DNA of 64,000 bases from Candidatus Woesearchaeota archaeon (GCA_018303505.1 JAGVYA010000040.1:6809-70808); one strand, 5' to 3'. Shown: positions 16,669 through 50,531, numbered from the stretch's first letter. Numbers and translations are program-made. Notes: generated by a model not told the origin, from the letters alone.

Positions 16669-16671
16669 TTT

Positions 16672-17373: not shown

Positions 17374-18126
17374 GCATACCCCCTACACATTGGAAATACT
17401 TATCGATTTTTAAAGGTATAGGGTTGTAATAGAAAGACCATTTAATAACTTGAATTGATATCATAAGGTAACCTCTTTTCCTATATTTTTATATCTTGAA
17501 GTATTATATTTAAATATATTTCGTTTATTAGTGCTTTTTATCAAATCTCTGGTAAGTCAAATATAAACTCAATTTTTGCATTTGTGAACTACAAACAGTC
17601 ATCTTAAAAGGCTTAAATTCTGCCTTGTCAAAAATCATAGATTTTTGAGCATGTTCAAATTCTGCTGAATTGGTAAGTCTTGTGTAATTACTGCCCTTTA
17701 AAATGGCAGAATTTGCCCATTTTAACCCTTAAAAAGCCATTCTAGGAACGAAAGGTTTATATAGTTAGGCTCTCTAAAAATCATGGGTTTAAATACTATT
17801 TTATCGACTATAAATTTGGGGTTTTAATAATTTTCATATAAACCGAAATTAGACATAAAACTAGATGGATTATGTTGATTAAATAAATTAATGAGTTAAA
17901 ATAAAAAATAAATTAAATTTGCATTAAACAAATTAAAAATTATAAAAAAATAAACGAGAGCGACCTTTAGATTAACAAGTGAATAAGGTGACCCGCTTTT
18001 AATTTTTTTATTGAATACATAGGCGAGGCGTAAATTAATGGCAGACAATTTACGCCGAGCATTAAAATTTGTTGCCGAAGGCAACGGATTGAAGATAAAA
18101 GTAAATTAAATCAAATTAAAAGATAA

Positions 18127-23970: not shown

Positions 23971-24238
23971 TCCACTTTTAGTAGTTACAAAATCAAAAGT
24001 TTTAAATATAAGTATGCTTTCCTACTAATTATGAAACGAGTTGATTGTCTTCATATTAAGTAAAATTAGTTCTGATTTAAATAGTTTCAACTCTAAAAAT
24101 TCGATTATTTTAAGATTTGCAGATAGCTGTATAACTATACATCATAATTGCTAAATTCTTTCATTGTTTAATTTAAAGTCTATCATTTGTTTTTACTTTT
24201 ATTAGCAAAATATCAAAATAATATAAAAAATCAAAATG

Positions 24239-24310
24239 GCAGCAGTAGTTTAGTGGTAGAATATACGACTGTGGCTCGTATGGCGCGAGTTCAATTCTCG
24301 CCTGCTACCC
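24239..24310 (+). tRNA. tRNA-His(GUG)
   Basis: G(-1) plus acceptor GCAGCAG/CTGCTAC with one C-A mismatch at 2:71. D-loop AGTGGTA, anticodon arm TACGA-CTGTGGC-TCGTA, T-arm GCGAG-TTCAATT-CTCGC, discriminator C pairing with G-1. No intron. Confidence 0.75.
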
Positions 24311-24336
24311 TATATAAATTTAGGGAGGAATTGAAA

Positions 24337-24933
24337 ATGTTAACTGAGAGAAGATTGCAAATTGGAGTGATGGGTTCAGCACAAGACCTTAACTACAGCA
24401 GAAATTTAGAGGAACTAGCAGAAGAAGTTGGTAGTTGGATAGCTAGAGGAGGTGCAATACTTGTATTTGGAGCAGAAAAAGATTATGATAGTTTATCAAC
24501 AGCTGCTTGTAGAGGCGCAAAGAAAGAAAGAGGACTAACAATTGGTTTTACTTATGGCAGAGGCAAAGATATTTACCAAAAAGACGCAGATATAATTGTA
24601 GTGACTGGTATGGAACGAGGAGGGGGCAGAGAGTTTGTGCTAGCAGCAAGCTGTGACTGCATGATAGCTTTAAGCGGCGGCTCTGGCACATTAAACGAAC
24701 TTGTTGTAGCATACCAATTAGGAATTCCCATGGTAGCTTTAAAAGGTACGGGAGGATGGGCAGAAAAACTTGCTGACCAATATTTTGATGCAAGACAAAG
24801 ACTGAAAGTTATTGGTGCAGACACACCAAAAGAAGCTGTTGAAATAGCATTTGAACAAGGTGGGAAATACATAGCTAAATTTAGATATAAAACATATGTT
24901 AGTCCTGAAAGTGGGTTAACATTTTTGAGATGA
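24337..24933 (+). CDS. LOG/TIGR00725-family Rossmann-fold nucleotide-binding protein
   Basis: GVMGSA and SGGSGTLNEL motifs, with a GGAGG Shine-Dalgarno sequence before the ATG at 24337. The longer ORF from 24187 is rejected because it runs through tRNA-His. Confidence 0.55.
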   Translation: MLTERRLQIGVMGSAQDLNYSRNLEELAEEVGSWIARGGAILVFGAEKDYDSLSTAACRGAKKERGLTIGFTYGRGKDIYQKDADIIVVTGMERGGGREFVLAASCDCMIALSGGSGTLNELVVAYQLGIPMVALKGTGGWAEKLADQYFDARQRLKVIGADTPKEAVEIAFEQGGKYIAKFRYKTYVSPESGLTFLR

Positions 24934-28792: not shown

Positions 28793-30067
28793 TTATTTTA
28801 AAATACTCCAAGTATCTGTCCATTTCTCTGATTTTCCGGAGAGAATATCATATGCTACTTTTACACCACTAGATAACCAAAGCGCAGATGACATTGCCTT
28901 ATACGCTGTAATTTGATGATAGTGTCTTAAAGTTTTAAAAAACTCCTTTGGTGTCTCTTCTGGATTACCACCAAGGGGCATACTTATTAGGGGGGAAGCA
29001 AATGATAGTGCAGTATCCCCTATTAGGAAATATTCTACAAAATCAGGTGAGAAATAATATATAATGGGTAATGAAACGAATGTTGCAGTATACAGTGTAG
29101 ATTCAATAAAACCTGGGAGGATGGTCGAGTAAGCAAGAGCCTTGGCTTTAGAATGTGGTCCAAAAAGGTCTTTTTTATGTAGATAAAGATTTTGCCATGT
29201 ACCGGTATGCCACCTAAAAGATTGTTTAAGTTGAGATTCTAGGGTAGTTACATCTTCTGCACTTACAACAGCATCTTGAACAACTCCTACTTTGTAACCT
29301 TCTTCTTGTAGTCTCCACGTATATGCAGTATCTTCAGTTTTTGTGCCAATTGGGATCTCAATATTTTTTAGTATATCAGACCTGACCATAAATGAAGCTC
29401 CACAAACAACAAACATAGCACGCCTGTATTGTTGTGCAGTCTTCCTAAATTTTCCAAGTTTGTTTACCCATTCCTTTCCATAATGAAAGTATTTAGCCAA
29501 GTAATTGTCTGGCGGAGTAACAAATCCAAAAGATGTTACTGCTGCAACATTCTCATCTGTAAATCCAGAAACTAATTTTTCAAGTACATCAGGAGCTAGT
29601 TTTGTTGACGAATCCTTCAAATAAACATAATATCCTAAATCAACATTTGTATCTCTTACAAGACAATTAATTTTTTCTGCTTTGCCAATCACACCATCTT
29701 TTGACCAATAATATACATTAGGGAATTCTTTACTTAATTTATTGATTATTCTACTGGTGTTATCAATATTTGAATCAGAAATGTATATGTTTTTTATTGG
29801 ATATGTTTGTTTAAACACATCCAGTACTATTTTTTCTATAGTTTTTTCTTCTCCATGAGCACTAATTACAACTGTGACGTCTTTTTTTGGTTTCTTAGAT
29901 ATAAGGGCATCGATAGAATCGCTCTCATTATAAAGTCCAGATACATCCTCAAATTCATTTTTTCTAGAACCTCTTCTAAGCTTATTTTTGGTCCAGTAAT
30001 ACGCAAGAGTTCCAATGTCTATTGACATTGTAATTGGTATTACTAAATATGGCATCCCCACTCCCAT
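28793..30067 (-). CDS. Processive family-2 glycosyltransferase (cellulose/chitin/PNAG-synthase-like) with a QxxRW motif
   Basis: N-terminal TM, GT-A domain, then QSFRWHTG (QxxRW) followed by C-terminal TM segments. Confidence 0.65.
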   Translation of the reverse strand: MGVGMPYLVIPITMSIDIGTLAYYWTKNKLRRGSRKNEFEDVSGLYNESDSIDALISKKPKKDVTVVISAHGEEKTIEKIVLDVFKQTYPIKNIYISDSNIDNTSRIINKLSKEFPNVYYWSKDGVIGKAEKINCLVRDTNVDLGYYVYLKDSSTKLAPDVLEKLVSGFTDENVAAVTSFGFVTPPDNYLAKYFHYGKEWVNKLGKFRKTAQQYRRAMFVVCGASFMVRSDILKNIEIPIGTKTEDTAYTWRLQEEGYKVGVVQDAVVSAEDVTTLESQLKQSFRWHTGTWQNLYLHKKDLFGPHSKAKALAYSTILPGFIESTLYTATFVSLPIIYYFSPDFVEYFLIGDTALSFASPLISMPLGGNPEETPKEFFKTLRHYHQITAYKAMSSALWLSSGVKVAYDILSGKSEKWTDTWSILK

Positions 30068-30223
30068 TTTATTTTACCTCGCTAGTTCTTGTACATTAAC
30101 CAAACCTATGATAATTTATCCCAATACTTAAATTTTTCTATTAATAAGTAGTTACAAAAAAAGAGGATATAAAATACTCGTCTCATAAAATTATTACTTC
30201 ATGTTTTTGTGCATGAATTTACA

Positions 30224-31591
30224 TTAGATAGGCTTTTTACTACTAGTATTCTTATTGATCATTCTGAGGGCATCAAAAGGCGGTTTATTATACCTACTTG
30301 CATTTAAGTACATAACGCTCCTTTTTATTCTGTTTGAATACTCTTGATCTTTTGGTATTCCCAGCAGCTCCTTACCTTTTTTAACAAGATTGTCAAATTT
30401 TTTATTTGAAAAATACTTATATAACTCATTACAGATAACATGAAAAGCGACAGTATCTTCAAAAAGTATTGAATTATATGTTTTATCTTTTTCATTATTA
30501 AAGAGAGAATAATACAATAAATCTGCAATTAATTTGTAAGATTCTTCAATAGAAACATTGCCTTTGTGGATCTTCATAAGGCCTTTAGTAACATCGTCAT
30601 TGACTCTATTTAAGTCGTCGCTTTTGGCAAGGAATAAAGGAATTATATGGGCAATGTAATTTTTTCTTTCATTTAAAGCCCTAACCTCTCTTTTGGCAAT
30701 ATCAGTTATCATGAAATTTTCATCAACAGCAGCATCACCTCTAACGTAAACAGCATATGTCAAATCATAATTGGATAAATCTCTTCTGTCCTTGATAGAC
30801 TTTAGAGAAGCCAAGCTTAAAATTATGTTGTTATGTGGGTCAAAGATACCTTTACTACTATTATATCTGGGATTAAAATAAGGGTTTTTGGGGTCTTTGA
30901 CCATTCTTAATGTTTTTTCTAAAGAATTAATATTAATTTGCCCCAATCCAAAATCAGTTAATTGTGGATTGATGTCAATAGGAATCATCGAAGATTCAAG
31001 TATAAAAAATCTAGTTGCAAATTCAGGATCAATACTGTAATAATTGCTTTCCTTTTCGATAAGTGATTTTAAAGGTATTAACCTTGCTAAAGTAATGTTC
31101 TCCCAAGGAGTAAGTTCTCTTATCCGATAATCTTTAAACTGCACTATTTCTTCTAAAGTTAAAATTTTTCTATGTGACACTCTCTCTTTTGCATTTGCAA
31201 TTTGTAAAGTCTCGTCTTGATAATCAATTTCAATAATGTCTTTAGGTATTTGAATAGGTATAACTATCTCTGGTTTTTCCACAAGAGTTGGATTTTCTGG
31301 TTGCTTTTTTTGGTAAACATAATTGATTACTTTTACATATTCTTCCTTCATTTGCTTTGTCATCTCTGGAATTGTATAAGTAAGAACAGAAGGAGAAGCT
31401 ACTATTAAAATTCCTGTGAGAACTGCAACAGAAGATCCTAAATATCTTCTAATTCGATGTCCTTTTGGATTTTTATGGCTATTTAGAGTATCGTTTAGTC
31501 TAAATGCTGATGAATTGGATTTTTTATCATCTCTGTTAAAAAAATCTTTTGGATCCATATTCGCCGAATATAATTTATAATACCTTGCCAA
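30224..31591 (-). CDS. Membrane-anchored protein with an SLT/lysozyme-like (lytic transglycosylase) domain
   Basis: N-terminal TM anchor and an ES...GLGQI motif (FILESSMIPIDINPQLTDFGLGQININ) that resembles the SLT catalytic E-S and GLMQ motifs. Confidence 0.4.
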   Translation of the reverse strand: MARYYKLYSANMDPKDFFNRDDKKSNSSAFRLNDTLNSHKNPKGHRIRRYLGSSVAVLTGILIVASPSVLTYTIPEMTKQMKEEYVKVINYVYQKKQPENPTLVEKPEIVIPIQIPKDIIEIDYQDETLQIANAKERVSHRKILTLEEIVQFKDYRIRELTPWENITLARLIPLKSLIEKESNYYSIDPEFATRFFILESSMIPIDINPQLTDFGLGQININSLEKTLRMVKDPKNPYFNPRYNSSKGIFDPHNNIILSLASLKSIKDRRDLSNYDLTYAVYVRGDAAVDENFMITDIAKREVRALNERKNYIAHIIPLFLAKSDDLNRVNDDVTKGLMKIHKGNVSIEESYKLIADLLYYSLFNNEKDKTYNSILFEDTVAFHVICNELYKYFSNKKFDNLVKKGKELLGIPKDQEYSNRIKRSVMYLNASRYNKPPFDALRMINKNTSSKKPI

Positions 31592-31604
31592 TAAAATACG
31601 TAAA

Positions 31605-34600
31605 CTAACTTACTATTACCCCGCACATCTCTACCGCATCGGTTGAGGTCCACGCCCATCCGCATGTTTCTAATATAATGGTGTCGGCCAAGAAGTTATC
31701 ATTAAACTTCTTTGTTAAAATACATGTGTTATCAGGTCCGGCATACACAAGCTTTTGTTCCGCAGTTGCATTGTTTTTTAACCACATCCTGTTCCAGCAT
31801 ATATCATAGTCCCCAAATATGGTAAAATTTTTAACCATTATTAATTTAGGGTAAGATAATGTTATATTAGCTTTTACGTTCCAATTAGTAGGGTTCCACG
31901 ATTTTTGGGTGCCACTCCAGATTGAGCACTCAATGTCCGCGTCAGGGGCACCAGTAGCATATATTGGCTCAGACCCGGTATTGCTTGATGTAGCATTTGC
32001 TGAAATAGCAAAATTACATAAATTAATAAATGTTTCAATAGTACATAGATTACTGCATCCATCCCCATTTACGAGGTTACCGTCATCACATTGCTCACCT
32101 GATTCAAGAATCGAGTTGCCACATTCTGGTAAGGGAGCACCTTTTACCACACGAATGTTCCTAACCCCTGAGGGATTAACATTAAACCTTATTGAGGAAC
32201 CATCTCTTTTAAAAGAAGTTACAACATTATCAATCTCAACTTTCTGCACGTTGCTTGAATTTACAAAAACTTTTATAGATATATTTTGGTTGAATAGCAG
32301 AGAACTTAAATTCCCAACTAAATTAAATGTAATTTCTGAATCTGTTTCTACCAAGTTTTGTATTTTTGCATTTTGTCTCTCTTTAATGTATTTCGCAACC
32401 TTACCAACAGGTGCAACCCACAAATCCTTAGTGGCAAGATAATCTATAGAGCCATTATCTTGGCATTCGTTGTGGAATACGAAGTTTACCCACTTATGCC
32501 GAGTTTCTGCATCATCTGCAGACATAAAATAGCTTGGTGGCTCTAGTGTCCTATCATGATAACCTGGCGTATTTAAACTTTTGATGTTCATAAAATCAGC
32601 AGGGTCTTTATCTTCCAACTGGTTGATATGATATCCGCGGGCTGAAACATAATATTCGCTTGTTATTGTTTTCATTTCTTCGTTATTGATGCCACAAGGC
32701 CATGCAAATGATGAAAGATCTTCTCGTGGCATTGGAATATTAGTTAAAATATCATTTATATTTGATCCCAGCTCTTGCCTTAATGTTGGCTCATTCATTA
32801 CCAAGCAGGAATGTGATTGTGTATGTCCTCCTATTTCATGTTTTTCAGCATATATGTCTCTCCAAAGATTCCATTTTGCTTCGTCAAAAGAACTAGTTTC
32901 AGAGAGGTAATAAGTTCCCTTGAATCCTTTTTGGTTTAGTTTATCTCTACAGGAAGAAAAACTATCGTCTATCGAAACAGATGCTGCTCCTCTATGGCAA
33001 TCCTGCCAGTCGCAAATCACTGCAATTGTAGGCACTATAGTCACGGGGTGCCTTAGATTATAAATTTCTGCAGGCTTTAAGAATTTAATTCTTGAATCAT
33101 TCTTGGCCATCAACAATGTTGTTGTGTATATGTTCCATTTTTGTTGATTTACTATTGGCTGAATTTCTGACATCATAAAATCCTGCTGATGGCTCATTAA
33201 AGAAACAACTTTGGTGCCATTTATGTAAAGCATGTCGCTGTCATTAAAAGCAATTATCTCTTCTATTACCTGCTCTGGTTGTTTAAAAGCCTCCCCAGGA
33301 CCAGGCTGTCCACTAATTGTAAGACTTACTGAGTATTGTATTACATCGTAATCGGGCAATGGATTAATGTGACCATATTCACTTACATATTGGTCAAAAT
33401 AAACCTTAAATCCAAGATCGTGGGTTGCATCCCTTATAGTCTCAGTAAACCTTCCAAGAAGTTGATTGTACGAAACAGGAGATGTTACATTAGAATAACC
33501 TATTTTTTCCAACTCGGTTATATATTTATTTTGCCATTCTTGAATTACCGATTTAACCTGAGAGTAAGACATCATGTCAAGTGGTGTTCCGTTGCTTGAA
33601 CTTTCACCTTTGAGTATAAGCTCAACATTTTTACTAGAGTACATATTTCCAATGATTTGATTGAATTCATTGTTGTCCATGGTGCCAGGATAAAAACTTA
33701 ACCCAATGGGTATGTTATTATCGTCATGCCATTGTCTTAACTGGTCGTAAAAGAAGAACCAGTCTGGATCAATACTGCCATCGATATCGCCAACATAGGG
33801 CACGAGGTATACCGACACATTTGAAGTTGTTGTATTTGTTGGTAATTCTTGACTATCTTGAACTGGCGTATACTCAAAACTGAAATACATGTCCTTACTA
33901 TCGTATTTTGTAGTTTTTGTAAAATTATTATTTGATATTAGCATATATGAATTAGCACCGTCATAAGAATAGTAATCAATTAATTTTCCATCTGAGAAAG
34001 TATCAGTACCTCCAAAAGTTTTCCAATTATTAACTAAATTTCCGCAACCTCGTGGACATTCCAGTATTAAATTGTAAAAAGTATTATTTGATATTATTAC
34101 ATTTCGATTTAATGTACAATTCCCAATTTCTGGTTTTGTTATATTTTTTAGTTGGCAGCTCCCTAAAACTTCATTTGATGTTGTATTCCTAATTTGTGCA
34201 TATAGAAATCCCTGTCCAGTTCCTTTCACAGGGCTATATTTTATAGATACTGCACTTATATTTAATTTTCCAATTAAACTCCTAAACCTCTGTCCCTGTC
34301 TATTGTAAATATCTATGAAATGCCCGCTAGTAAAAATTTCACCTTGTTCTGGTAAACCCTTCCATTCACTACTTACATTAATAGCAAACTTTAATCTTTC
34401 TGAACTCACTGAAGGTGCCTTAAAATTACCTCTAACACCTCTTTCTCTTCTAAATGATGTATCTTTTATACCACTTGGTGTATAGAACTCGTTATCTCCT
34501 GTTGTGTCCATAACTGCCACTCCTAAAGAGATGTATTTTGAACTGCTACAACTGTCACAGTACCAACAAAAATGGTAAACTGTTCCTTGGTTTATAGTTA

Positions 34601-34994
34601 TTAATGGCACACTTATATTTAGATCAGATACACCATAATTAATCGTTTTATTAATAAATGTTAACCATGTTCCGCTTGGATTTCCTCCATTATCTGCCAT
34701 AAACCCTATTGTAATTTTGGGAAAACCTTTCCTACCTTTTAAATTAAAAGAAATAGCTGTAACATCTCCAGTTTTTGTTGAGTTAAATCTTTGACACTCG
34801 TATTCCATATTAACATCTAATTTTGTATTGTACGATGATGATACTGATGAAAATTGCCCAAATGTGGCTCCCTTTACATAAGCAATATTAATAACTAAAA
34901 TTAAAATAAATATCAATAACAATTTTAATTTCTTATTCAATTTACCTCCAATTGTTTCCGCACATAATGGCAAACTCTTAATTTCTTGAATCAT
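31605..34994 (-). CDS. Giant secreted protein (1129 aa) with a CE4 polysaccharide-deacetylase-like domain and a C-terminal Cys-rich repeat (CGNGxxExGEQCDDGN...DGCS)
   Basis: Signal peptide or TM at the N-terminus, many N-x-T sequons, NodB-like SIDDS...GGHTQSH motifs, and the repeat ECGNSILESGEQCDDGNLVNGDGCSNLC. Confidence 0.55.
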   Translation of the reverse strand: MIQEIKSLPLCAETIGGKLNKKLKLLLIFILILVINIAYVKGATFGQFSSVSSSYNTKLDVNMEYECQRFNSTKTGDVTAISFNLKGRKGFPKITIGFMADNGGNPSGTWLTFINKTINYGVSDLNISVPLITINQGTVYHFCWYCDSCSSSKYISLGVAVMDTTGDNEFYTPSGIKDTSFRRERGVRGNFKAPSVSSERLKFAINVSSEWKGLPEQGEIFTSGHFIDIYNRQGQRFRSLIGKLNISAVSIKYSPVKGTGQGFLYAQIRNTTSNEVLGSCQLKNITKPEIGNCTLNRNVIISNNTFYNLILECPRGCGNLVNNWKTFGGTDTFSDGKLIDYYSYDGANSYMLISNNNFTKTTKYDSKDMYFSFEYTPVQDSQELPTNTTTSNVSVYLVPYVGDIDGSIDPDWFFFYDQLRQWHDDNNIPIGLSFYPGTMDNNEFNQIIGNMYSSKNVELILKGESSSNGTPLDMMSYSQVKSVIQEWQNKYITELEKIGYSNVTSPVSYNQLLGRFTETIRDATHDLGFKVYFDQYVSEYGHINPLPDYDVIQYSVSLTISGQPGPGEAFKQPEQVIEEIIAFNDSDMLYINGTKVVSLMSHQQDFMMSEIQPIVNQQKWNIYTTTLLMAKNDSRIKFLKPAEIYNLRHPVTIVPTIAVICDWQDCHRGAASVSIDDSFSSCRDKLNQKGFKGTYYLSETSSFDEAKWNLWRDIYAEKHEIGGHTQSHSCLVMNEPTLRQELGSNINDILTNIPMPREDLSSFAWPCGINNEEMKTITSEYYVSARGYHINQLEDKDPADFMNIKSLNTPGYHDRTLEPPSYFMSADDAETRHKWVNFVFHNECQDNGSIDYLATKDLWVAPVGKVAKYIKERQNAKIQNLVETDSEITFNLVGNLSSLLFNQNISIKVFVNSSNVQKVEIDNVVTSFKRDGSSIRFNVNPSGVRNIRVVKGAPLPECGNSILESGEQCDDGNLVNGDGCSNLCTIETFINLCNFAISANATSSNTGSEPIYATGAPDADIECSIWSGTQKSWNPTNWNVKANITLSYPKLIMVKNFTIFGDYDICWNRMWLKNNATAEQKLVYAGPDNTCILTKKFNDNFLADTIILETCGWAWTSTDAVEMCGVIVS

Positions 34995-35012
34995 TTTATT
35001 TATTTGTATATA

Positions 35013-35110
35013 TTATTTGTGTATATATTACCCATTATTCGTGTTTGTTATTAGCTATTTATTATTTGTGTATATATTACCCATTATTCGTGTTTGTTAT
35101 TAGCTATTTT
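35013..35110. repeat. Perfect tandem direct repeat, 2 x 49 bp, in the intergenic region upstream of the giant-protein gene
   Basis: TTATTTGTGTATATATTACCCATTATTCGTGTTTGTTATTAGCTATTTA occurs twice back to back, with a partial third copy before it. Confidence 0.8.
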
Positions 35111-35112
35111 GT

Positions 35113-36627
35113 TTAGTTACTAGCTAAGAATGCTTTAGCAACAAATTTCGCATCCTCTTTATTTAATAGTGGGTATATCGGTAAAGATAAGGCGTATTTA
35201 TGGGCTAAGTCTGTATTCATTATACTTTCGTTTAAACATAGTAATTGATGTAATGGTTTGTAAATCGGTTTTTTAGCTTCAACCCCAAACAATTTTAATT
35301 TATTCGCAACACGCTCTGGGTCATCTACTAAAACAATGTATCTATAAAATAAATTATTTTCATCAAATCTTCTGAGAAACATATTTTGATGGGCGGTATC
35401 TTGCAATACCTGTCTGTAAAATGCCGCTATTTCTCTTCGCTTTTTTATGAATTCAGGCAATCTTTTAAATTGTTGAATTCCCAAATAAGCATGCAAATCA
35501 TCCATCTGAAAGCTATGCCCTAAAATAAATTTATCACTTTCGTCTGTTGTCATAAGTTTTTTTGCTTTTTGGTAGGTATCTTCATTTTTTGTTACTAATG
35601 CTCCACCCCTCCCTGTTGTTAATAGTTTGGTGGCATAAAAAGACAAGATTGCCATCTCACCCATTGCACCTATTTTTCTACCATCATAGTCAGCACCAAA
35701 ACATTGTGCACAATCCTCTATTACTGGTGTACTGTATTGTCTTAATTGATCAAAGTCTTTTATTGGGATCCCAAACATATGCGCTGCAATTATTGCTTTT
35801 GTATTTTTTGAAATTTTTTCTTCTAAACCTTTTTTAGAAATATTAAAGTCGTCATGGTTTATATCAGCAAATATCGGCTTAGCACCTGTATGGATAACTG
35901 ATTGTAACACAGACATACACATATAAGGAGGAACAATTACCTCGTCCCCTTCTTTCACACCTAACGCCTTCAAACCTAAGAGTAATGCATTTGAACCGCT
36001 ATTTGTTAAAATAACCTTGCTTCCTAGATAATCTTCCAATGTCTGTTCAAAGGAAGTAACCATAGAGCCATCAGCAAGTCTTCCTCCTTTAAGTAAGTCT
36101 TCAATACCCTGCCTGTATTCTACGTCTAAAGTTGGTTTTGAATGTTTTATTGTTGAAGTCGCTGTTTTAAGCGCTTTAAAGAAATCGTACCTGTTAATTC
36201 TATCATCACCCATCGTATGCCCTACGATATGATAACCAGCTTCTGTATACATCTTGTTAGCGGTATTATTTGGAATTTGGGATTTGAAATGTATTCCGCT
36301 TAAACCTAAATCAGCACATTTCTTTTCAAATTCCGTCAACAGTTTCTTACCTATTCCCATTCCTCTATAATTTTTATCAACAACCACTTTTCCAAAATAA
36401 GCAACGCCTGGATTGCTTTCAAAACCTATAGAATAACCAACTATTTCATCTCTCCTCATTGCCAAAAAACTCAAGTCCCATTTATTATTAATTTCCCTTA
36501 AAAAATTTTCATCTGTCCAAGGTCTTTCACCTATACCTACCCAATTATGTTCTAAAGCTAATATTCCTTCAAGTTTTGAAATCATTGTTTCCCTGTTTAA
36601 TTGTAATATCTTAACTTCTTCTGTCAT
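35113..36627 (-). CDS. Bifunctional GNAT N-acetyltransferase / DegT-DnrJ-EryC1 PLP-dependent sugar aminotransferase
   Basis: The N-terminus has the GNAT motif VVVDKNYRGMGIGKKLL. The C-terminus has DegT motifs (TNSGSNALLLGLKAL, FYATKLLTTGRGGALV). Length is 504 aa. Confidence 0.65.
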   Translation of the reverse strand: MTEEVKILQLNRETMISKLEGILALEHNWVGIGERPWTDENFLREINNKWDLSFLAMRRDEIVGYSIGFESNPGVAYFGKVVVDKNYRGMGIGKKLLTEFEKKCADLGLSGIHFKSQIPNNTANKMYTEAGYHIVGHTMGDDRINRYDFFKALKTATSTIKHSKPTLDVEYRQGIEDLLKGGRLADGSMVTSFEQTLEDYLGSKVILTNSGSNALLLGLKALGVKEGDEVIVPPYMCMSVLQSVIHTGAKPIFADINHDDFNISKKGLEEKISKNTKAIIAAHMFGIPIKDFDQLRQYSTPVIEDCAQCFGADYDGRKIGAMGEMAILSFYATKLLTTGRGGALVTKNEDTYQKAKKLMTTDESDKFILGHSFQMDDLHAYLGIQQFKRLPEFIKKRREIAAFYRQVLQDTAHQNMFLRRFDENNLFYRYIVLVDDPERVANKLKLFGVEAKKPIYKPLHQLLCLNESIMNTDLAHKYALSLPIYPLLNKEDAKFVAKAFLASN

Positions 36628-36655
36628 TTTTTCCTCAAACGATTATTACACGTAT

Positions 36656-37423
36656 TTATTCTGGTTTTGGTAAAATAGTACCCATATTCAAAATAAAATC
36701 AATAGAACACATATAAGGTAAAAAATCCGGATGATGTAGTTGTTTATAAACAGGATGATTAAATTCTTGGAATTTAATGGAAATTCCTTTTTTTTCAAAG
36801 GGGTCAGGCACCAAATAGCTTTTTCCCCCATCACCGCTTAAATAAACAACATTGCTGATATTTTTTTCTATTGCAACTGCTTCGCACAATGAAGCTAGGT
36901 TTATAGACCCTTTGCACTCAGACTCCTTATCCATTTCAATATCATGTTTATTAATAAACTCGCTAGATGTAACTATTTCAGTTCCTAATTTAAAAACTTG
37001 TTTGATATAGTTAATAAAACGCATATTATAGTCTCTCAAAGATTCACATGGGTCTCTAAATAACTGCTCGAGTTCTGGATGAAATTCATTAAAATACTGT
37101 GCTTTATCATAGAACAAATGTATATCTCTAAGCATATCTTCATACCAGTACAATTTTCCTTTAACTTTTGTATCTAATTTTATGCGAACATCTTTTATAT
37201 CATCGAGGCTTTCATAAACTGGAATTGTAAGCCATTTTGAATTTGGAGTCCCATCATCGGTGACACCAGGTATCTTTATTCTGTTTCTGTGATGAAAATC
37301 CCTCTTTACAAACTGCACATCGTCTCTTATTAAGAAAACATCTGCTCTTGACATTTTATCAGTAAAACCAATGTAGGGCAAGAAATTTGGCTGATGTGCT
37401 GCAATAACCAACTTTTCAGTCAT
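36656..37423 (-). CDS. WbqC-family protein (polysaccharide biosynthesis)
   Basis: The N-terminus IAAHQPNFLPYIGFTDKMSRADVFLIRDDVQF matches the WbqC family pattern. Confidence 0.55.
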   Translation of the reverse strand: MTEKLVIAAHQPNFLPYIGFTDKMSRADVFLIRDDVQFVKRDFHHRNRIKIPGVTDDGTPNSKWLTIPVYESLDDIKDVRIKLDTKVKGKLYWYEDMLRDIHLFYDKAQYFNEFHPELEQLFRDPCESLRDYNMRFINYIKQVFKLGTEIVTSSEFINKHDIEMDKESECKGSINLASLCEAVAIEKNISNVVYLSGDGGKSYLVPDPFEKKGISIKFQEFNHPVYKQLHHPDFLPYMCSIDFILNMGTILPKPE

Positions 37424-37429
37424 TTTTAA

Positions 37430-38056
37430 TCAGCCTCTGATATAGTGGTTTGAAATGAATGGCTCAGCATAACTTATAATGGAGTTGTCGCCATTTATTA
37501 GACTGCCAAAGAAAATAGCAGTAGCCCTGATATAATCTGGATGTATTTTCTGAGACTGACTTTTATGGGCACTAATCGCTTCGATTTTTTTTTCTAACAT
37601 TTCCCCATTTCCCATAACAAAAATATTTGGTAAGAATTCTTTTTTTGGAAATGAACCTCTATAAAGAAGAACTTGAGGTACCTTTTTGAAAGCTGCCATT
37701 GAAGCCTCTGCAACAGCAACATGGTCCTGATGAGTATCATGATCAGCATGAGTCATAACCAAATAAGGATTTACTTTTGAGGAGATATTTTTAAGGTCGT
37801 CTATAATTTGCACCATTTCAGGAAAACTAGTGTCTTTATATGATAAGAAAATCAAATCATCTATGCCTAAAATCTTTGCAGCATGTTCTGCCTCTTTTTG
37901 CCTTGTAGTTGGACTACCCCTACTTTCACCAGAAGAACAAACAACAGAAATAACTTTGTTACCTTTTTCTTTCTCACTCAGGATACTCATTCCTGCACCA
38001 ATTTCATAGTCATCTGGGTGAGCCCCAACAACTAAAACTGTTTTATCATCCTCCAT
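37430..38056 (-). CDS. PIG-L/LmbE-family N-acetylglucosaminyl deacetylase
   Basis: VVGAHPDDYEIG motif and a later HxDH region. Length is 208 aa. Confidence 0.65.
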   Translation of the reverse strand: MEDDKTVLVVGAHPDDYEIGAGMSILSEKEKGNKVISVVCSSGESRGSPTTRQKEAEHAAKILGIDDLIFLSYKDTSFPEMVQIIDDLKNISSKVNPYLVMTHADHDTHQDHVAVAEASMAAFKKVPQVLLYRGSFPKKEFLPNIFVMGNGEMLEKKIEAISAHKSQSQKIHPDYIRATAIFFGSLINGDNSIISYAEPFISNHYIRG

Positions 38057-38160: not shown

Positions 38161-39036
38161 CTAAAAACCTTTCCAAATTCCTATAACGAATCTCACAAAA
38201 TCGCCTTTTGCACCCTCTGGAGAATCTCTATTACCCGCTTCAATTCTGCTGTAAAAAGGTATACCTCCAATGTTTAATGTTGCTTCTGCACCTCCTGCAT
38301 ATTCGCTATATCGATTCCAAGGTCGATTATTGGAATCAGTAGAAATCTTTGCTCTAACAGATGGAGCGTCCAAGGCAAATGAGGCATATTCGTTGTCAAA
38401 TTTAATTAATCTCAAACCAACTTGGCCTTCTAATTTCGCTAACACACTTTTTTCTAAACTATGATGGCTAACTTCACCATTTCCTTGCACAACCGGAGTT
38501 AATGGAAAAGTTTTTGATTTTGTTAAGTCTGGACCAAAAAATCTGTGCCAAAACTCTGCATAAGCTCTGTAGAAATTGCCACTAGCTTCATCATTATATT
38601 TATTTTCTCTGTAGCCTGCTTCTAAGCCAGCAGCGAGTATACCTTTGTATCTTGCTTGAATTCCAATCGCTGCTTCAGTATAATTATTCCAGGGATGCTC
38701 TCTTCCTTTTCCATCATCTTTTATTTTTCCTCTTATTAAAGGGGCAATTATTGAATAATCATCTTTTTGTAAGAGGGTATAACCCGAAGAAGCTGCCAAT
38801 TCGCTTGTTGTTTCATCAATACCTCCTGTAAGCACTTCATGCTGCGCATTTACATGGCCTGTTAGTCTGTTTGTTAAATCCAAAGCTTGTGCTTTAGTTG
38901 GACTTGTCACACAAAATGTTGTTGCCAACGCTAATCCAGTAACACCCCCCCCTATTTTCTTTAACACATTTCGTATATAATTTTGTCTAGTATGTATATC
39001 ATTTATACCAACACCCACATGTGTTTTATTGTTCAT
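38161..39036 (-). CDS. Secreted hypothetical protein (signal peptide ending AQA), GC-richer than neighbours
   Basis: ORF with an N-terminal hydrophobic segment and an AQA-like cleavage site. Confidence 0.4.
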   Translation of the reverse strand: MNNKTHVGVGINDIHTRQNYIRNVLKKIGGGVTGLALATTFCVTSPTKAQALDLTNRLTGHVNAQHEVLTGGIDETTSELAASSGYTLLQKDDYSIIAPLIRGKIKDDGKGREHPWNNYTEAAIGIQARYKGILAAGLEAGYRENKYNDEASGNFYRAYAEFWHRFFGPDLTKSKTFPLTPVVQGNGEVSHHSLEKSVLAKLEGQVGLRLIKFDNEYASFALDAPSVRAKISTDSNNRPWNRYSEYAGGAEATLNIGGIPFYSRIEAGNRDSPEGAKGDFVRFVIGIWKGF

Positions 39037-46531: not shown

Positions 46532-48022
46532 TTAGTACCCCTTCCCAAACACTGCCCAGAATTTAGCTTCTTTTCCGCATTGAACACAATTTCCTTTTGC
46601 AGCTTTCTGCTCAAATGGAATGCATCTGCAGGTTGCTCCCTCTGTTTTGTTTTTTATAGAACTTTCACATTCATCGTGTCCACAGAATAATGCTTTAGCC
46701 ATTTTTTTGCTTTTTATAACATTTACAAAATCATTAAAGTTATGCACTTCAACAGTGCTTTTGGTTAAATATTCTTTTGCTTTTTTGAATAGATTATCCT
46801 GTATCTCATTCAATGTTTGCTCAACTTTTTTTTCCAAATCTTTTGTTTTGATTGTGGTTTTTTCATTATTGTCCCTTCTGGCTAAAACAAGCTGCTCAGC
46901 CTCAACATCTTTTGGGCCAATCTCTATCCTTAATGGCACTCCTTTTAGCTCCCATTCATTGAATTTCCAGCCCGGTGTGTAGCCGTCCCTGTCGTCAAGC
47001 TCAACACTATAATTTTTGGCTTTTAATTTTTTGACTATTTCCTTGGCTTTTGCAATAATATTCTCCTTATTTTCCTTGAAGACAATCGGCACAATAACAA
47101 TATGCACTGGGGCTATTTTTGGGGGCAAAACCAATCCTTTGTCATCCCCATGGGCCATGACAATAGCCCCTATTGTTCTCGTGCTTAACCCCCAGGATGT
47201 CTGCCATACATATTTCTCTTTTTCATCCTTATCCAAGAATTTTATGTCAAATACTTTTGCGAAATTCTGCCCAAGCAAATGGCTTGTGCCCATCTGCAAT
47301 GCCTTGCCATCAGGCATAAATGCTTCAACTGTTGTTGTGTAGTCAGCGCCAGCAAACTTTTCCTTGTCAGTTTTTTTGCCTGCAATGACTGGGATTGCCA
47401 TGAAATTTTCAATCAAATCAACGTATTCAAACAGCTGCTGCATTACTTCTCTTTCAGCGTCTTCTCTTGTTGCATGCGCTGTATGGCCTTCCTGCCATAA
47501 AAATTCTCTTGTTCTTAAGAAAGGCTTTGCGTGCTTGAACTCCCACCTTACAACAGAATTCCACTGGTTTAAAAGCAATGGCAAGTCTCTCCAAGATCTA
47601 ATCCATTTTGCATAGCTTTCATACATAATTGTTTCTGATGTAGGCCTTATGGCTAATTTTTCATTTAATTCTGTGTCACCAGCTTTTGTAACCCATGCGA
47701 CTTCTGGATTAAATCCTTTAACATGCTCTGCTTCTTTCTTTAGCAAGCTTTCCGGTATGAACATAGGAAAATAGCAGTTTTTGTGCCCTGACCTTTTTAT
47801 TTTATCGTCAAAAATTTTCTGGATTTTCTCCCAGATTGAATAAGAATTTGGCTTGAAGATAATGCAGCCTGATACAGAAGAGTAATCAATCATGTCTGCC
47901 TTTAAGACTATCTGGTTGTACCACTCGTTAAAGCCTTCTGATTTTTTTACCGATAAGCCAGCGACTTGTGAGCGAGTTTCGCTTCGCTCACTCGCATTCG
48001 ACTGTTCTTCTTTTTGTTCCAT
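46532..48022 (-). CDS. proS: Prolyl-tRNA synthetase, archaeal/eukaryal type, with an N-terminal extension of about 28 aa encoded by a GC-rich hairpin-forming segment
   Basis: Class II motifs and the C-terminal zinc-binding CGHDECES...C. The canonical start region ...EGFNEWYNQIV is preceded by MEQKEEQSNASERSETRSQVAGLSVKKS. Confidence 0.85.
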   Translation of the reverse strand: MEQKEEQSNASERSETRSQVAGLSVKKSEGFNEWYNQIVLKADMIDYSSVSGCIIFKPNSYSIWEKIQKIFDDKIKRSGHKNCYFPMFIPESLLKKEAEHVKGFNPEVAWVTKAGDTELNEKLAIRPTSETIMYESYAKWIRSWRDLPLLLNQWNSVVRWEFKHAKPFLRTREFLWQEGHTAHATREDAEREVMQQLFEYVDLIENFMAIPVIAGKKTDKEKFAGADYTTTVEAFMPDGKALQMGTSHLLGQNFAKVFDIKFLDKDEKEKYVWQTSWGLSTRTIGAIVMAHGDDKGLVLPPKIAPVHIVIVPIVFKENKENIIAKAKEIVKKLKAKNYSVELDDRDGYTPGWKFNEWELKGVPLRIEIGPKDVEAEQLVLARRDNNEKTTIKTKDLEKKVEQTLNEIQDNLFKKAKEYLTKSTVEVHNFNDFVNVIKSKKMAKALFCGHDECESSIKNKTEGATCRCIPFEQKAAKGNCVQCGKEAKFWAVFGKGY

Positions 48023-48320: not shown

Positions 48321-50531
48321 TTATTTAACTTGTATTATTCCGGAATATCCCAAGCCTTCAACTTTGTATTTGTTAGTTGTTGAATTGAGAGTACATTTGT
48401 AGAATCTTTTTGTGCTCCTGCCATTGCATCTAATTTTAAATTCCATTCTTTTATTGCATTTACTGCTTATGTTGCTTATTGACGGAATATTGTCATCTTT
48501 AATACAAAGTTTGTTTAGCGAAACATTAATCTTATCAACATACAAAGTTTTTCTCGTTCCTTCTGGCATTCTCAAGCCTCTGACAAAAAATGAGCCTTTT
48601 TGATTTGGCAATTGCTTATCAATTGTCAAATTTGTTAAATTCAACACATTCTTGGAAAAATTAAAATCAAATTCGATTATTGTCAAGTTTGCATCAAAAA
48701 ATCTAACTCTAAAACTTTCATTAAAAAACCTTGATAAATCACTTGAATTTCCAATAAATATTGTAAGATTAATTGTTGATGTATTTACAGATTTTTCATT
48801 GCCGATTAGCTTATCAATAATGTCATTAATTCCATCGTTATCTATATCATTTTCCGAAGCATTAAGAATGGTTATTTTGAAGACAAGAGAGTCACTAAGA
48901 AATCCGTCTGAAACAATGGCTTCTAAAACATATTCGCCACTGTCATTTGTTGTTGTATTCCATTGAAAAACATTAAAGCTATTTGAAAATTTTGAAAAGT
49001 TAATTGAAAAAGACAGTTCATCTTCATTTGGATCAGAGGCTGAAAGGTTTATTATTATCTTAGCTGTCTCGTTTATTGTAATATTATTAATTGGCTCTAA
49101 AGTTGGCTTTTTATTTAATTTTATTATAAGCCTTTCAGCATTATTGCTTTCGTTTAGCTCTTCTACAAAATCGTTTAAGTCAGCAATGGCTGTTATTTCA
49201 AAGTCAGAGAAATTAGTAAAATTAAATTTGTGGACTATTTGTGAGTTGACATTCAATAAATTGGATTTGTTTGTTTTTGTGAATGTGTTATTATCAAAAA
49301 TTTCTGCAAAAACATTGAATGCGTGCTTATTTCCTGTGTTTTTTATAATGACTTCAATTGATACATTGTTAATTCCATAATGATATTCGCCAGAAGCTGA
49401 AATATTAACAATCAAATCAGGCAAATTTGGCTTGTTAAAATCATTAAAATTATAGTTTCCAGTTATATAAGCATTATTTATTAAGTCCACTAAATTTCCA
49501 TTTTCAAAAAGTTTGGTATATTTCACAATAAAAGGCCCATTGAGCTTTTTGCCATATATCTTTGAGCCATTAATTAAAATTGAAAGGTTATTATCTCCAA
49601 ATGCTAAGAAAAAGGTTGTATTTTTTATCTCAACAATATTGTCGAATAAATCGTACAATCCTAGCAATATATTGTAATGATTGTCATTAAATATTTTGGC
49701 ATTTGCATTAATCTGAAGCAAATTGAACTCGTCGTCATTGTCTGTATCAATTCCTGTGTCTGAGAATTCGGATAAATAAGCTGTTTCGGCAAAATCCCTG
49801 AAATCGTAGAATGAAATCACTGCATTTATTTTGATTACCTTTTTGCCAATTTTTACAGAAGAAATATTAAAATTTCCAATATAGTGCGTTCTTTTTATTG
49901 TTTCATTGTCAAAATTAAATATTAAGTCTTGAATTGAATTTGTTATTGTTTTGTTTTCCTTAATAGAAATTATTGAATTGTTATAAGCTAAAAACAATAT
50001 TGTTTCAAAAGTTCCATTAATATACGAGTTTATAGTTACATTTACTTTTAACATTTTATCAACCTTTGAATCCTTGATGCTTAATATTTCAAATCCTTTT
50101 TCATAATTTGTGTATTCTTGTGTCAAGATATTGTCTTTTCTATATTTTAGACTGAAGCTCGAATTGTAAATTTTTACTGAGTAATTGAACTGATTTTGTG
50201 ATAAAAGTATGGTATTGAGCATTATATTCAATTTATTTATTCCGGCATTTAAAGTAACATTTGTTTCATTTGTTAAGATTCCATTTTTATCTAACAGATT
50301 AATTACAAAAATAAAAATGTCATCTGCATTGTTTGTTGTCAACTCAAAAACTAAAGTGTCGTTAATGCCATTGCTGTTTTTGTCAATCATGAAGTCTTTG
50401 AACTCAGTCACATTCATTTGCGGCGATGTTGCTGAGAAAGAGTATCTTGCTATTAAATCTTTAATCGAGAGGGAGTAAGCTACTGGAATTAGAAATAAAA
50501 CAACTAAAAATATTACCACCCCTTTGCTCAT
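48321..50531 (-). CDS. Large Asn-rich secreted or cell-surface protein (736 aa)
   Basis: Signal peptide, many N-x-S/T sequons and repeated beta-rich segments. Confidence 0.5.
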   Translation of the reverse strand: MSKGVVIFLVVLFLIPVAYSLSIKDLIARYSFSATSPQMNVTEFKDFMIDKNSNGINDTLVFELTTNNADDIFIFVINLLDKNGILTNETNVTLNAGINKLNIMLNTILLSQNQFNYSVKIYNSSFSLKYRKDNILTQEYTNYEKGFEILSIKDSKVDKMLKVNVTINSYINGTFETILFLAYNNSIISIKENKTITNSIQDLIFNFDNETIKRTHYIGNFNISSVKIGKKVIKINAVISFYDFRDFAETAYLSEFSDTGIDTDNDDEFNLLQINANAKIFNDNHYNILLGLYDLFDNIVEIKNTTFFLAFGDNNLSILINGSKIYGKKLNGPFIVKYTKLFENGNLVDLINNAYITGNYNFNDFNKPNLPDLIVNISASGEYHYGINNVSIEVIIKNTGNKHAFNVFAEIFDNNTFTKTNKSNLLNVNSQIVHKFNFTNFSDFEITAIADLNDFVEELNESNNAERLIIKLNKKPTLEPINNITINETAKIIINLSASDPNEDELSFSINFSKFSNSFNVFQWNTTTNDSGEYVLEAIVSDGFLSDSLVFKITILNASENDIDNDGINDIIDKLIGNEKSVNTSTINLTIFIGNSSDLSRFFNESFRVRFFDANLTIIEFDFNFSKNVLNLTNLTIDKQLPNQKGSFFVRGLRMPEGTRKTLYVDKINVSLNKLCIKDDNIPSISNISSKCNKRMEFKIRCNGRSTKRFYKCTLNSTTNKYKVEGLGYSGIIQVK

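Follow-up and report, generated by a model that had tools for sequence, protein, structure and literature searches.

A membrane glycosyltransferase of family GT2 paired with a deacetylase of family CE4 is found in several described systems. An earlier note on the DNA studied here took this pair as defining the bacterial poly-N-acetylglucosamine (PNAG) systems PgaC/PgaB and IcaA/IcaB, but it is also a hallmark of NodC/NodB and of chitin synthase with chitin deacetylase. The subject of the present work is a cluster of seven genes with such a pair on a contig of a Candidatus Woesearchaeota archaeon (GCA_018303505.1, JAGVYA010000040.1:6809-70808). This whole stretch of 64,000 nucleotides is referred to as the window, and coordinates given without a locus name are counted from its first letter. 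The cluster is one member of a gene cassette that recurs across DPANN archaea and is best described, by analogy, as working like PNAG, chitosan and Nod systems, in that a GT2 synthase is combined with a CE4 deacetylase and a glycanase. We propose, at a probability of roughly 0.5, that it is a DPANN-specific, synthase-dependent cassette by which an amino-sugar polymer is made for the cell surface or the extracellular space.

The abundant DPANN archaea rely on hosts and have mostly escaped cultivation; the make-up of their envelopes and their attachment to hosts are largely unexplained. Among the relatives that bear on the comparison, NodC makes short oligomers, and PcManGT is a non-processive archaeal mannosyltransferase linked to N-glycan synthesis. 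The CE4 domain of PgaB is circularly permuted, to go by the title of Nishiyama 2013 as cited in PMC10967932. Searches of the literature on WbqC, DPANN deacetylases, archaeal PNAG and PcManGT returned no description of the cassette; the nearest precedent is a figure in which a Woesearchaeota GT2 is drawn next to PgaC and BcsA (PMC10086821).

A gene cassette shared by DPANN lineages

All seven open reading frames (ORFs), of 424, 455, 1129, 504, 255, 208 and 291 aa, lie on the minus strand with exactly the coordinates and lengths that the earlier note gave them, and the gaps between them, 6-156 nt, are operon-like. The overall span in that note, 28793-38056, stops short of the seventh gene (38161-39036) named in its own text. 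Of its seven domain calls, six are upheld; that of SLT has weak support, with its motifs retained. The archaeal origin is supported by a GT2 with 100% identity to a protein from Ca. Woesearchaeota on an 81.7-kb contig and by flanking housekeeping genes, which include an M24 methionine aminopeptidase (MetAP), the histidyl-, prolyl- and isoleucyl-tRNA synthetases (HisRS, ProRS and IleRS), PolB, GyrB and genes of purine synthesis. The GC content of the cluster is that of the remaining window.

Close homologues of the GT2 number 36 (E <= 1.5e-67), all labelled DPANN, the next match having an E-value of only 1e-6, and the same neighbours surround GT2 homologues on Aenigmatarchaeota and Pacearchaeota contigs. 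A survey in which one genome per species was scanned gave 27 loci, all of them from DPANN archaea barring two contigs binned as Methanosarcinales and Desulfobacterales. These two, L031 (CAYUKJ010000065.1) and L034 (JABXJW010000119.1), hold the full DPANN cassette and are probably mis-binned DPANN contigs.

Co-occurrence was assessed by phmmer searches of the window proteins and domains against all ORFs of the loci. A GT2, a GNAT acetyltransferase, a DegT aminotransferase and a secreted protein with CE4, ModA (a conserved domain described below) and Cys-containing domains were found in every locus with sufficient contig reach, while PIG-L and WbqC were both found in 20 loci, always adjacent, with PIG-L directly upstream of WbqC in every archaeal locus that has both. 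Six families, namely PIG-L, WbqC, GNAT, DegT, GT2 and the CE4 and ModA protein, travel together in Aenigmatarchaeota, Woesearchaeota, Pacearchaeota and Nanoarchaeia, and the recurrence of the gene set places the clustering far beyond chance. The minimal form, in L004, has five genes: PIG-L, WbqC, GNAT-DegT, a CE4 protein of 750 aa and GT2. GNAT and DegT are fused in the window and in seven loci (L004, L018-L020, L024, L025 and L028) and are separate genes in some others; GT2 is fused to GNAT in L027, L032, L034 and P0009, and CE4 is fused in L034 to a putative glycanase family, FamX. The GNAT-DegT and GT2-GNAT fusions suggest consecutive steps coupled to the synthase.

A tyrosine recombinase (Phage_int_SAM_4 and Phage_integrase), about 270 aa long in two complete copies, is encoded a few kb from the cassette in three lineages (L001:5702-6520, L004:3273-4079 and L034:10288-10779). 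It may reflect mobility, or it may be a housekeeping gene of the XerA type whose synteny is conserved.

The membrane glycosyltransferase

The GT2 (28793-30067, minus strand) has a cellulose-synthase-like minimal fold according to Pfam, alignment and an AlphaFold2 (AF2) model compared by Foldseek. It matches Pfam Glyco_tranf_2_3 at 4e-16 and has the motifs TED (aa 244-246) and QSFRW (aa 282-286). In an alignment of 27 sequences, D98, D152, T244-E245-D246 and Q282/R285/W286 are invariant or nearly so, and the polar residues E322, D351 and K390 of the C-terminal helical part are conserved; the latter fit a channel and equally a lipid-acceptor site. The hydropathy plot, with a single hydrophobic helix at the N-terminus and two or three modest ones towards the C-terminus, resembles that of NodC and lacks the strong helices of PgaC.

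The AF2 model (pLDDT 89.9) has helices at 276-302, 309-331, 341-365 and 383-409. Its top Foldseek matches in the PDB were hyaluronan synthases, PcManGT, BcsA, plant CesA and yeast Chs1, with TM-scores relative to the query (TMq) of 0.55-0.62 and, for the hyaluronan synthases, BcsA, CesA and Chs1, E-values of 1e-15 to 1e-9; PcManGT (6yv7) ranked second and had the best TM-score relative to the target (TMt), 0.67. A direct PDB sequence search with the GT2 gave nothing useful. When the GT2 profile was compared with the PDB, BcsA was aligned over positions 43-331, through QxxRW, and PcManGT was the top match for the N-terminal half, over only positions 41-159, the nucleotide-binding half. Dolichyl-phosphate mannose synthase (DPMS; 5mlz), at 2.7e-6, ranks behind BcsA and aligns with the nucleotide-binding part only, and no dolichyl-phosphate glycosyltransferase family was among the NCBIfam matches. 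The earlier note had named kinship with dolichyl-phosphate enzymes (AglD/AglJ) as a finding that would overturn its claim; with TED and QxxRW present and the DPMS match confined to the nucleotide-binding half, the assignment to the synthase-like branch survives this check.

The best NCBIfam matches, to PgaC_IcaA, an XrtG-associated glycosyltransferase and NodC, are all far below the cut-offs, with 61.7 bits for PgaC_IcaA (TIGR03937; cut-off 422.3) and 32 bits for NodC (cut-off 550). By hhalign, the GT2 is related to Escherichia coli PgaC with a probability of 98.4% (E 1e-14, 22% identity) and to Sinorhizobium meliloti NodC with one of 98% (E 4e-16, 26% identity). Judged by its motifs and predicted fold, the enzyme is a member of the superfamily of cellulose, hyaluronan, chitin, NodC and PgaC synthases. 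Of the earlier description of it as a processive synthase with QxxRW, the QxxRW synthase-type features hold; processive polymerization would be a further property, and PcManGT (non-processive) and NodC (short oligomers) are equally close to the enzyme.

One relative, from Aenigmatarchaeota (L003:8072-9874), was called at 600 aa and exceeds the other members by some 180-200 aa at the N-terminus; a mis-called start or an additional domain could account for the extra length.

The secreted deacetylase protein

The giant protein of 1129 aa (31605-34994, minus strand) is modular and secreted or anchored according to its ORF, hydropathy and alignment with homologues, among which the modules are shuffled; the domain borders given here were set by alignment with homologues only. 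An extracellular location is suggested by the hydrophobic stretch at aa 25-43 and by the numbers of N-x-S/T sequons and Cys residues, 25 each, and because of the N-terminal anchor the CE4 domain should act outside the cell. The first region after the anchor, aa 41-385 (33840-34874), is variable and unconserved, with no Pfam match at E<=10 and no phmmer match in any related locus.

The CE4 (NodB-homology) deacetylase domain occupies aa 656-870 (32385-33029) and was recognized by Pfam, by profile comparison with the PDB and by alignment. Polysacc_deac_1 matches aa 684-780 at 1.4e-5, above the Pfam gathering score. The order of motifs is canonical and non-permuted: DD at 676/677, HxxxH at 724/728, xPxG at 766/768 and H841. 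Among 23 sequences, D676, H724, R786 and H841 are invariant and D677, H728 and D827 at least 90% conserved. Motif 3 reads A-W-P-C-G (764-768); the usual place of the Arg is empty, and the invariant R786 lies downstream. The best matches of the CE4 profile in the PDB are polysaccharide and peptidoglycan N-acetylglucosamine (GlcNAc) deacetylases from Bacillus (about 2-5e-8), with the TFDD/DD and HxxxH motifs aligned. Comparison with PgaB by hhalign gave a probability of 5.5%, and with NodB, for a query without the N-terminus, only the HxxxH region was aligned. The absence of an Asp-His-His triad had been named in the earlier note as a second finding that would overturn its claim; the metal site, the catalytic Asp and the catalytic His are conserved in the 23 homologues.

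The domain that precedes CE4, which we term ModA (aa 386-655; 33030-33839), is conserved and probably a distant relative of DUF2334. It has no match in Pfam and no sequence match in the PDB, and only 69 representatives were found among 1.84 billion proteins, most of them co-occurring with CE4 and DUF4215 in one chain; in L017, L031 and L034, ModA is a stand-alone gene. A second ModA-like region in P0139 exceeds the Pfam cut-off for DUF2334, and the corresponding ModA profile match reaches 5.5e-9 with hmmsearch and 97.6% with hhalign. The H-x-x-x-H site is replaced, with IELILKG here and IELIQKGY in the family consensus against IEIGQHGYSH. Comparisons of ModA with the neighbouring CE4, the second domain of PgaB and one bacterial DUF2334 protein showed no relation. 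ModA is probably a divergent DUF2334-type domain, the sole link being transitive via P0139.

Behind the CE4 domain, aa 871-950 (32145-32384) form a region that is conserved in alignments of homologues, with phmmer matches in 11 loci, and is presumed to be a beta-sandwich. It is followed by a DUF4215 or cysteine-rich acidic repeat at aa 956-988 (32031-32129), which was found by both Pfam (aa 956-984, 1.4e-7) and NCBIfam (myxo_disulf_rpt, 3.7e-14) and whose PDB matches are the equivalent repeat of pappalysins. Pfam thus supports both features, CE4 and a DUF4215-like repeat, that had been ascribed to this protein. The C-terminal Cys-containing domain (aa 990-1129; 31608-32027), delimited from phmmer repeats and alignment, is present in one to four copies in homologues (e.g. 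L015, L003) and has the motifs WSG..SW.P..WN, GDYD.C and CGW.W...DAV..CG, in this order. It has no significant Pfam match and may bind carbohydrate or the cell surface.

The cytoplasmic quartet

Pfam confirms the three genes that had been called a GNAT-DegT fusion, WbqC and an LmbE/PIG-L deacetylase, so that amino-sugar tailoring enzymes are indeed encoded alongside the synthase. In the fusion protein (35113-36627, minus strand), a GNAT domain (aa 34-139) precedes a pyridoxal-phosphate-dependent DegT aminotransferase (aa 168-499). The DegT domain matches Pfam at 1e-79, its best NCBIfam matches are PseC and the LegC family, below the cut-offs, and every relative in the PDB is an aminotransferase of sugars or inososes. 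The PIG-L/LmbE zinc de-N-acetylase (37430-38056, minus strand; Pfam PIG-L 1.4e-27) has the motifs AHPDD and HxDH and is closest in NCBIfam to BshB1 (83.7 bits, cut-off 182.5).

The WbqC-family protein (36656-37423, minus strand; Pfam WbqC 2e-50) has a Rossmann-like fold in its AF2 model (pLDDT 91.7). The sole near-significant Foldseek match in the PDB is BshC (4wbd; E 1.2e-3, probability 1.00, TMq 0.51), followed by class I aminoacyl-tRNA synthetases and pantothenate synthetase at E > 0.07. The predicted fold of WbqC and the resemblance of PIG-L to BshB1 together suggest a deacetylate-then-reacylate chemistry.

Similar gene groups occur in bacteria. Plasmids of the Bacillus thuringiensis group, NZ_CP022346 among them, encode, in order, a dehydrogenase, DegT, a short-chain dehydrogenase/reductase (SDR), DegT, GNAT, WbqC and PIG-L; PIG-L and WbqC are also found inside bacterial pseudaminic-acid and nonulosonic-acid clusters, and WbqC adjoins DegT in two other bacterial contigs. 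In Streptomyces, an operon combines a ProRS paralogue, a GT4 glycosyltransferase, WbqC and LmbE (PMC10404621). All ORFs of the window and of the DPANN loci were also searched by jackhmmer for relatives of bacterial SDR dehydratases, 2-epimerases, NeuB, CMP-transferases and PglD. Apart from a marginal PglD match in L025, none of these enzymes turned up, either across the 64 kb of the window or in the flanks of the loci.

The glycanase slot and accessory genes

Between the giant protein and the GT2 lies a gene (30224-31591, minus strand) for a putative glycan-cleaving protein that is membrane-anchored (transmembrane segment at aa 51-69) and SLT-like (GH23-like), as judged from a near-threshold Pfam match and motifs. 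The SLT/lysozyme-like call of the earlier note is weak: the Pfam match (E 3.5e-4, 20.6 bits) falls below the cut-off of 21.3 bits, while the motifs ES, GLGQ, DPxxNI and AYxxG align to residues 481-601 of E. coli Slt70, including its ES (hhalign probability 4%), and are conserved in the only homologue found, that of L032 (32% identity).

In 13 other loci this position is taken by FamX, which, like a second family, FamY, was found by clustering unassigned ORFs within the cassettes. FamX proteins are about 300 aa long with an N-terminal anchor and adjoin GT2 in 12 loci (L017-L020, L022-L026 and L028-L030; e.g. L018:7005-7928); with the fusion to CE4 in L034:3589-5721, FamX is present in 13 loci, and the window is without it. 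The FamX profile matches GH18 structures, namely YdhD (1.4e-4), SleL (6e-4) and chitinases, its GFDGxxVDIE aligning to the GH18 catalytic stretch with the D-x-E motif in register, and one member matches Pfam Glyco_hydro_18 at 3.5e-5. A variable glycan-cleaving enzyme in one slot is usual for synthase-dependent polysaccharide operons. GH18 and GH23 enzymes cleave beta-1,4 bonds beside GlcNAc or N-acetylmuramic acid, not beta-1,6 bonds. Because the slot is filled by GH18-like or SLT-like enzymes, there is a hint that the polymer is a beta-1,4-linked N-acetylhexosamine (HexNAc) chain, similar to chitin or chitosan, rather than beta-1,6 PNAG.

FamY proteins, counted as the third family of the slot, are encoded in seven loci (L001:14503-15246, L003:11386-12489, L008:4467-5237, L009:10751-11521, L012:5239-6036, L027:16833-17732 and L010:2574-3482). 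They are anchored, with a C-terminal domain of about 190 aa and the motifs LHYDY, AVNPP and IDVYVG. FamY follows DegT in most loci, the order typical of Aenigmatarchaeota, and is found elsewhere in the cluster in L010 and L027. It has no match in Pfam or the PDB. Its assignment as a 3D/MltA-like lytic transglycosylase was considered and dropped, as Pfam, the PDB and hhalign to E. coli MltA all gave no support.

The seventh gene (38161-39036, minus strand) encodes a protein of 291 aa with an internal duplication, PWN[NR]Y[TS]E... (EHPWNNYTEAAIG... and NRPWNRYSEYAGG...), and no family match in Pfam or NCBIfam. The sequence ends in Phe, and its 'AQA' signal-peptide end looks bacterial. The earlier note had described it as secreted; the ORF is present, while its hydrophobic N-terminus stays under the hydropathy threshold used. 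The sole homologue (25% identity) is encoded in L032, beside PIG-L and the SLT-like gene. Besides the window, the SLT-like and 291-aa genes occur only in L032, and both are accessory; membership of the 291-aa protein in the system is uncertain. The idea that it is a PgaA-like porin was dropped, as it has no similarity to PgaA.

A proposed function and its alternatives

The proposed synthase-dependent cassette, with polymer and chemistry inferred from domains and synteny, might operate as follows. At the cytoplasmic face of the membrane, the GT2 would use a nucleotide sugar to polymerize HexNAc (probably GlcNAc or one of its derivatives) and would pass the chain to the other side. The anchored CE4 domain would then strip some N-acetyl groups, giving a cationic polymer, while ModA, without its His-His metal site, would probably bind the chain or otherwise process it, and chains may be trimmed or released by the SLT-like enzyme, whose place a GH18-like one takes in most other loci. 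In the cytoplasm, DegT followed by GNAT could place an acetamido group on a keto-sugar, and PIG-L followed by WbqC could remove an N-acetyl group and re-acylate the free amine, in the manner of BshB/BshC and MshB/MshC/MshD.

Several observations weigh against this proposal. The DxD motif of the GT2 is degenerate (DSS, at D152); its weak, NodC-like set of hydrophobic helices recalls an enzyme whose products are short oligomers, and PcManGT matches the model as well as the synthases do, which bears on processivity. The GH18-like and SLT-like assignments lie below curated thresholds, and FamY is without any family. WbqC has no sequence-level match in the PDB, its link to BshC being structural only, and BshC itself is without demonstrated activity in vitro (PMC4360819). 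PIG-L and WbqC are absent from L023 and L030 despite ample flanks. Neither a source of keto-sugar for DegT (a 4,6-dehydratase or dehydrogenase) in the window and locus flanks nor genes of UDP-GlcNAc synthesis within the 64-kb window were found.

In one alternative the GT2 is non-processive and makes, like NodC or PcManGT, a short oligosaccharide or a lipid-linked glycan, which the cytoplasmic PIG-L, WbqC and GNAT would decorate by deacetylation and re-acylation in the manner of NodB and NodA. What results would be a glycoconjugate of the surface, or else a diffusible signal, for use in host interaction, on which the secreted CE4 and the glycanases would act further. A GT2 of just 424 aa with NodC-like hydropathy and without strong PgaC helices is compatible with this, NodC is at least as close as PgaC, PcManGT is second by fold with the best TMt, and a cytoplasmic deacetylase and a putative ligase would suit a product facing the cytoplasm. 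On the other hand, the tight linkage of the GT2 to a large anchored CE4 protein and extracellular glycanases better suits a long chain, and the conserved C-terminal polar residues fit a channel (if also a lipid-acceptor site). We regard a non-processive enzyme as unlikely, but still deserving of attention.

A bolder form of the polymer proposal is that DPANN archaea make their own wall-like or tethering polymer, a chitin- or chitosan-like HexNAc glycan from a minimal synthase, with some of its amines freed by a BshB-like deacetylase and then re-acylated, possibly with amino acids, by the BshC-like WbqC, capped by GNAT and remodelled outside the cell by CE4, GH18-like and lytic-transglycosylase-like enzymes. 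This is speculative and has only an outside chance of being correct. If true, it would constitute an independent archaeal 'aminoacyl-glycan', analogous in logic to murein and pseudomurein, and would provide the first assigned reaction type for WbqC and, by extension, for BshC.

It is improbable that the cassette is degradative, with CE4, ModA and the SLT- and GH18-like enzymes attacking wall polymers of a host or neighbour (peptidoglycan or chitin) and the cytoplasmic enzymes processing the released amino sugars. PIG-L-family deacetylases function in archaeal chitin catabolism, and DPANN archaea are host-dependent. Among solved structures, the CE4 domain comes closest to peptidoglycan GlcNAc deacetylases and FamX to YdhD and SleL, hydrolases of spore-cortex peptidoglycan, and SLT is the fold of peptidoglycan lytic transglycosylases. 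Against such a role, a synthase-like GT2 anchors every locus and is fused to GNAT in four, the cassette has no conserved transporter, kinase or deaminase, and DegT and WbqC sit in biosynthetic sugar clusters in bacteria.

Less probable again is a soluble small molecule made on the plan of mycothiol or bacillithiol (glycosylation, de-N-acetylation, amino-acid ligation and N-acetylation), the secreted protein being unrelated to it. PIG-L has BshB1 as its best NCBIfam match, the fold of WbqC is nearest to BshC, the best solved relative of DegT is annotated as a glutamine--scyllo-inositol transaminase, and the GNAT could act as MshD does in the mycothiol pathway (PMC4360819). The glycosyltransferase, however, is a synthase-type membrane GT2 and not a soluble GT4 such as BshA or MshA, all scores are far below the equivalog cut-offs, and the CE4/ModA protein is as tightly linked as the other parts, being fused or adjacent in every lineage.

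Finally, a true PNAG system, functionally PgaC/PgaB or IcaA/IcaB and making partially deacetylated beta-1,6-GlcNAc, is scarcely credible: PgaC_IcaA is nominally the top NCBIfam family of the GT2, hhalign links it to PgaC, a secreted CE4 is linked to it and a Woesearchaeota GT2 has been drawn beside PgaC and BcsA, but the NCBIfam score is 61.7 instead of 422 bits with NodC aligning slightly better, the CE4 is non-permuted and unlike that of PgaB or IcaB, there is no counterpart of the second domain of PgaB, of PgaA or of PgaD/IcaD, and the associated glycanases are GH18- or GH23-like, families that act on beta-1,4 bonds.

Genomic context of the window

The window has a dip in GC content to 0.264 at 16001-18000, against about 0.35 elsewhere, and two unannotated minus-strand ORFs (15925-16668 and 16672-17373) lie in this low-GC stretch. 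An ORF of 248 aa at 24187-24933 overlaps a tRNA-His gene (24239-24310), and at least its 5' part is probably non-coding. About 9 kb past the cassette, at 48321-50531, a CARDB-domain protein of 736 aa is encoded, likely another cell-surface protein. The ProRS gene (46532-48022) lies about 9 kb from WbqC; since it looks like an ordinary housekeeping gene, the parallel with the ProRS paralogue in the Streptomyces operon is probably a coincidence.

Significance

The new elements of the cassette are the fixed link of DegT, GNAT, WbqC and PIG-L, the GT2-GNAT fusions, the ModA domain and the interchangeable glycanases. The cassette is conserved in at least four DPANN lineages and predicts a cationic, de-acetylated amino-sugar polymer, which would be a target for staining or enzymatic attack in studies of attachment and biofilms. 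The cassette also offers a compact context in which to study WbqC, ModA and two further domain families, and it calls for caution in annotation, as a GT2 and CE4 pair should not be named 'PNAG' without tests at the level of orthologs.

Comparison with known systems

The Pga and Ica systems share with the cassette a membrane GT2 with TED and QxxRW beside a secreted CE4 de-N-acetylase, and in both the deacetylase is paired with a second barrel-like domain; the CE4 of L034 is fused to a glycoside hydrolase-like domain, as is that of PgaB. The GT2, however, is no orthologue of PgaC or IcaA, the second domain is DUF2334-like and not GH153 (ModA gave no match to the GH153 domain of PgaB), the CE4 motifs are canonical where those of PgaB are permuted, and the cassette is without PgaD/IcaD, PgaA or a cyclic di-GMP element. 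When the cassette ORFs without assignment and 90 aa or longer were compared, no small membrane protein like PgaD or IcaD proved to be conserved; a shorter one could have escaped this size limit. Conversely, Pga and Ica lack the four-gene cytoplasmic tailoring module of the cassette. By the sequence tests run, on synthase orthology, CE4 permutation and partner proteins, the locus fails to qualify as Pga/Ica, and 'PNAG-like' cannot be retained in that sense: the synthase score is far too low, the CE4 differs from PgaB, and PgaD, PgaA and GH153 have no counterpart.

Further comparisons are offered by the machinery of chitin and chitosan (chitin synthase, CE4 chitin deacetylase and GH18 chitinase) and the rhizobial NodC/NodB/NodA system, with which the cassette shares the GT2 superfamily (by hhalign for NodC and by fold for Chs1) and canonical CE4 motifs. 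A GH18-like partner, present in 13 cassette loci, recalls the chitin machinery, and the Nod sequence of deacetylation and N-acylation recalls the step proposed for PIG-L and WbqC. The GT2 nevertheless scores only 32 of the 550 bits required for NodC, the cytoplasmic deacetylase is PIG-L and not CE4, there is no homologue of NodA, and the CE4 of the cassette is predicted to be extracellular, within a giant multidomain protein.

The cytoplasmic quartet has a parallel in the plasmid module of Bacillus thuringiensis/cereus/mycoides, in which DegT, GNAT, WbqC and PIG-L are contiguous (NZ_CP022346), and in Pse and NeuB clusters, inside which PIG-L, WbqC and DegT are found. These bacterial clusters have their own SDR dehydratase or dehydrogenase, often with NeuB and a CMP-transferase, none of which is within reach of the DPANN loci; the partners of the DPANN quartet are instead a secreted CE4 and a synthase-like GT2. 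Bacillithiol and mycothiol synthesis show the same logic of a glycosyltransferase, an LmbE/PIG-L deacetylase, a ligase and a GNAT (PMC4360819), with BshB1 and BshC as the best matches, but the glycosyltransferase here is a membrane GT2 rather than a GT4, no equivalog cut-off is reached and the similarity to BshC is at the level of fold. PcManGT of Pyrobaculum calidifontis (6yv7), lastly, is an archaeal membrane GT2 of similar size with a cellulose-synthase-like fold, whereas the GT2 described here stands in a context of CE4, glycanases and amino-sugar enzymes.

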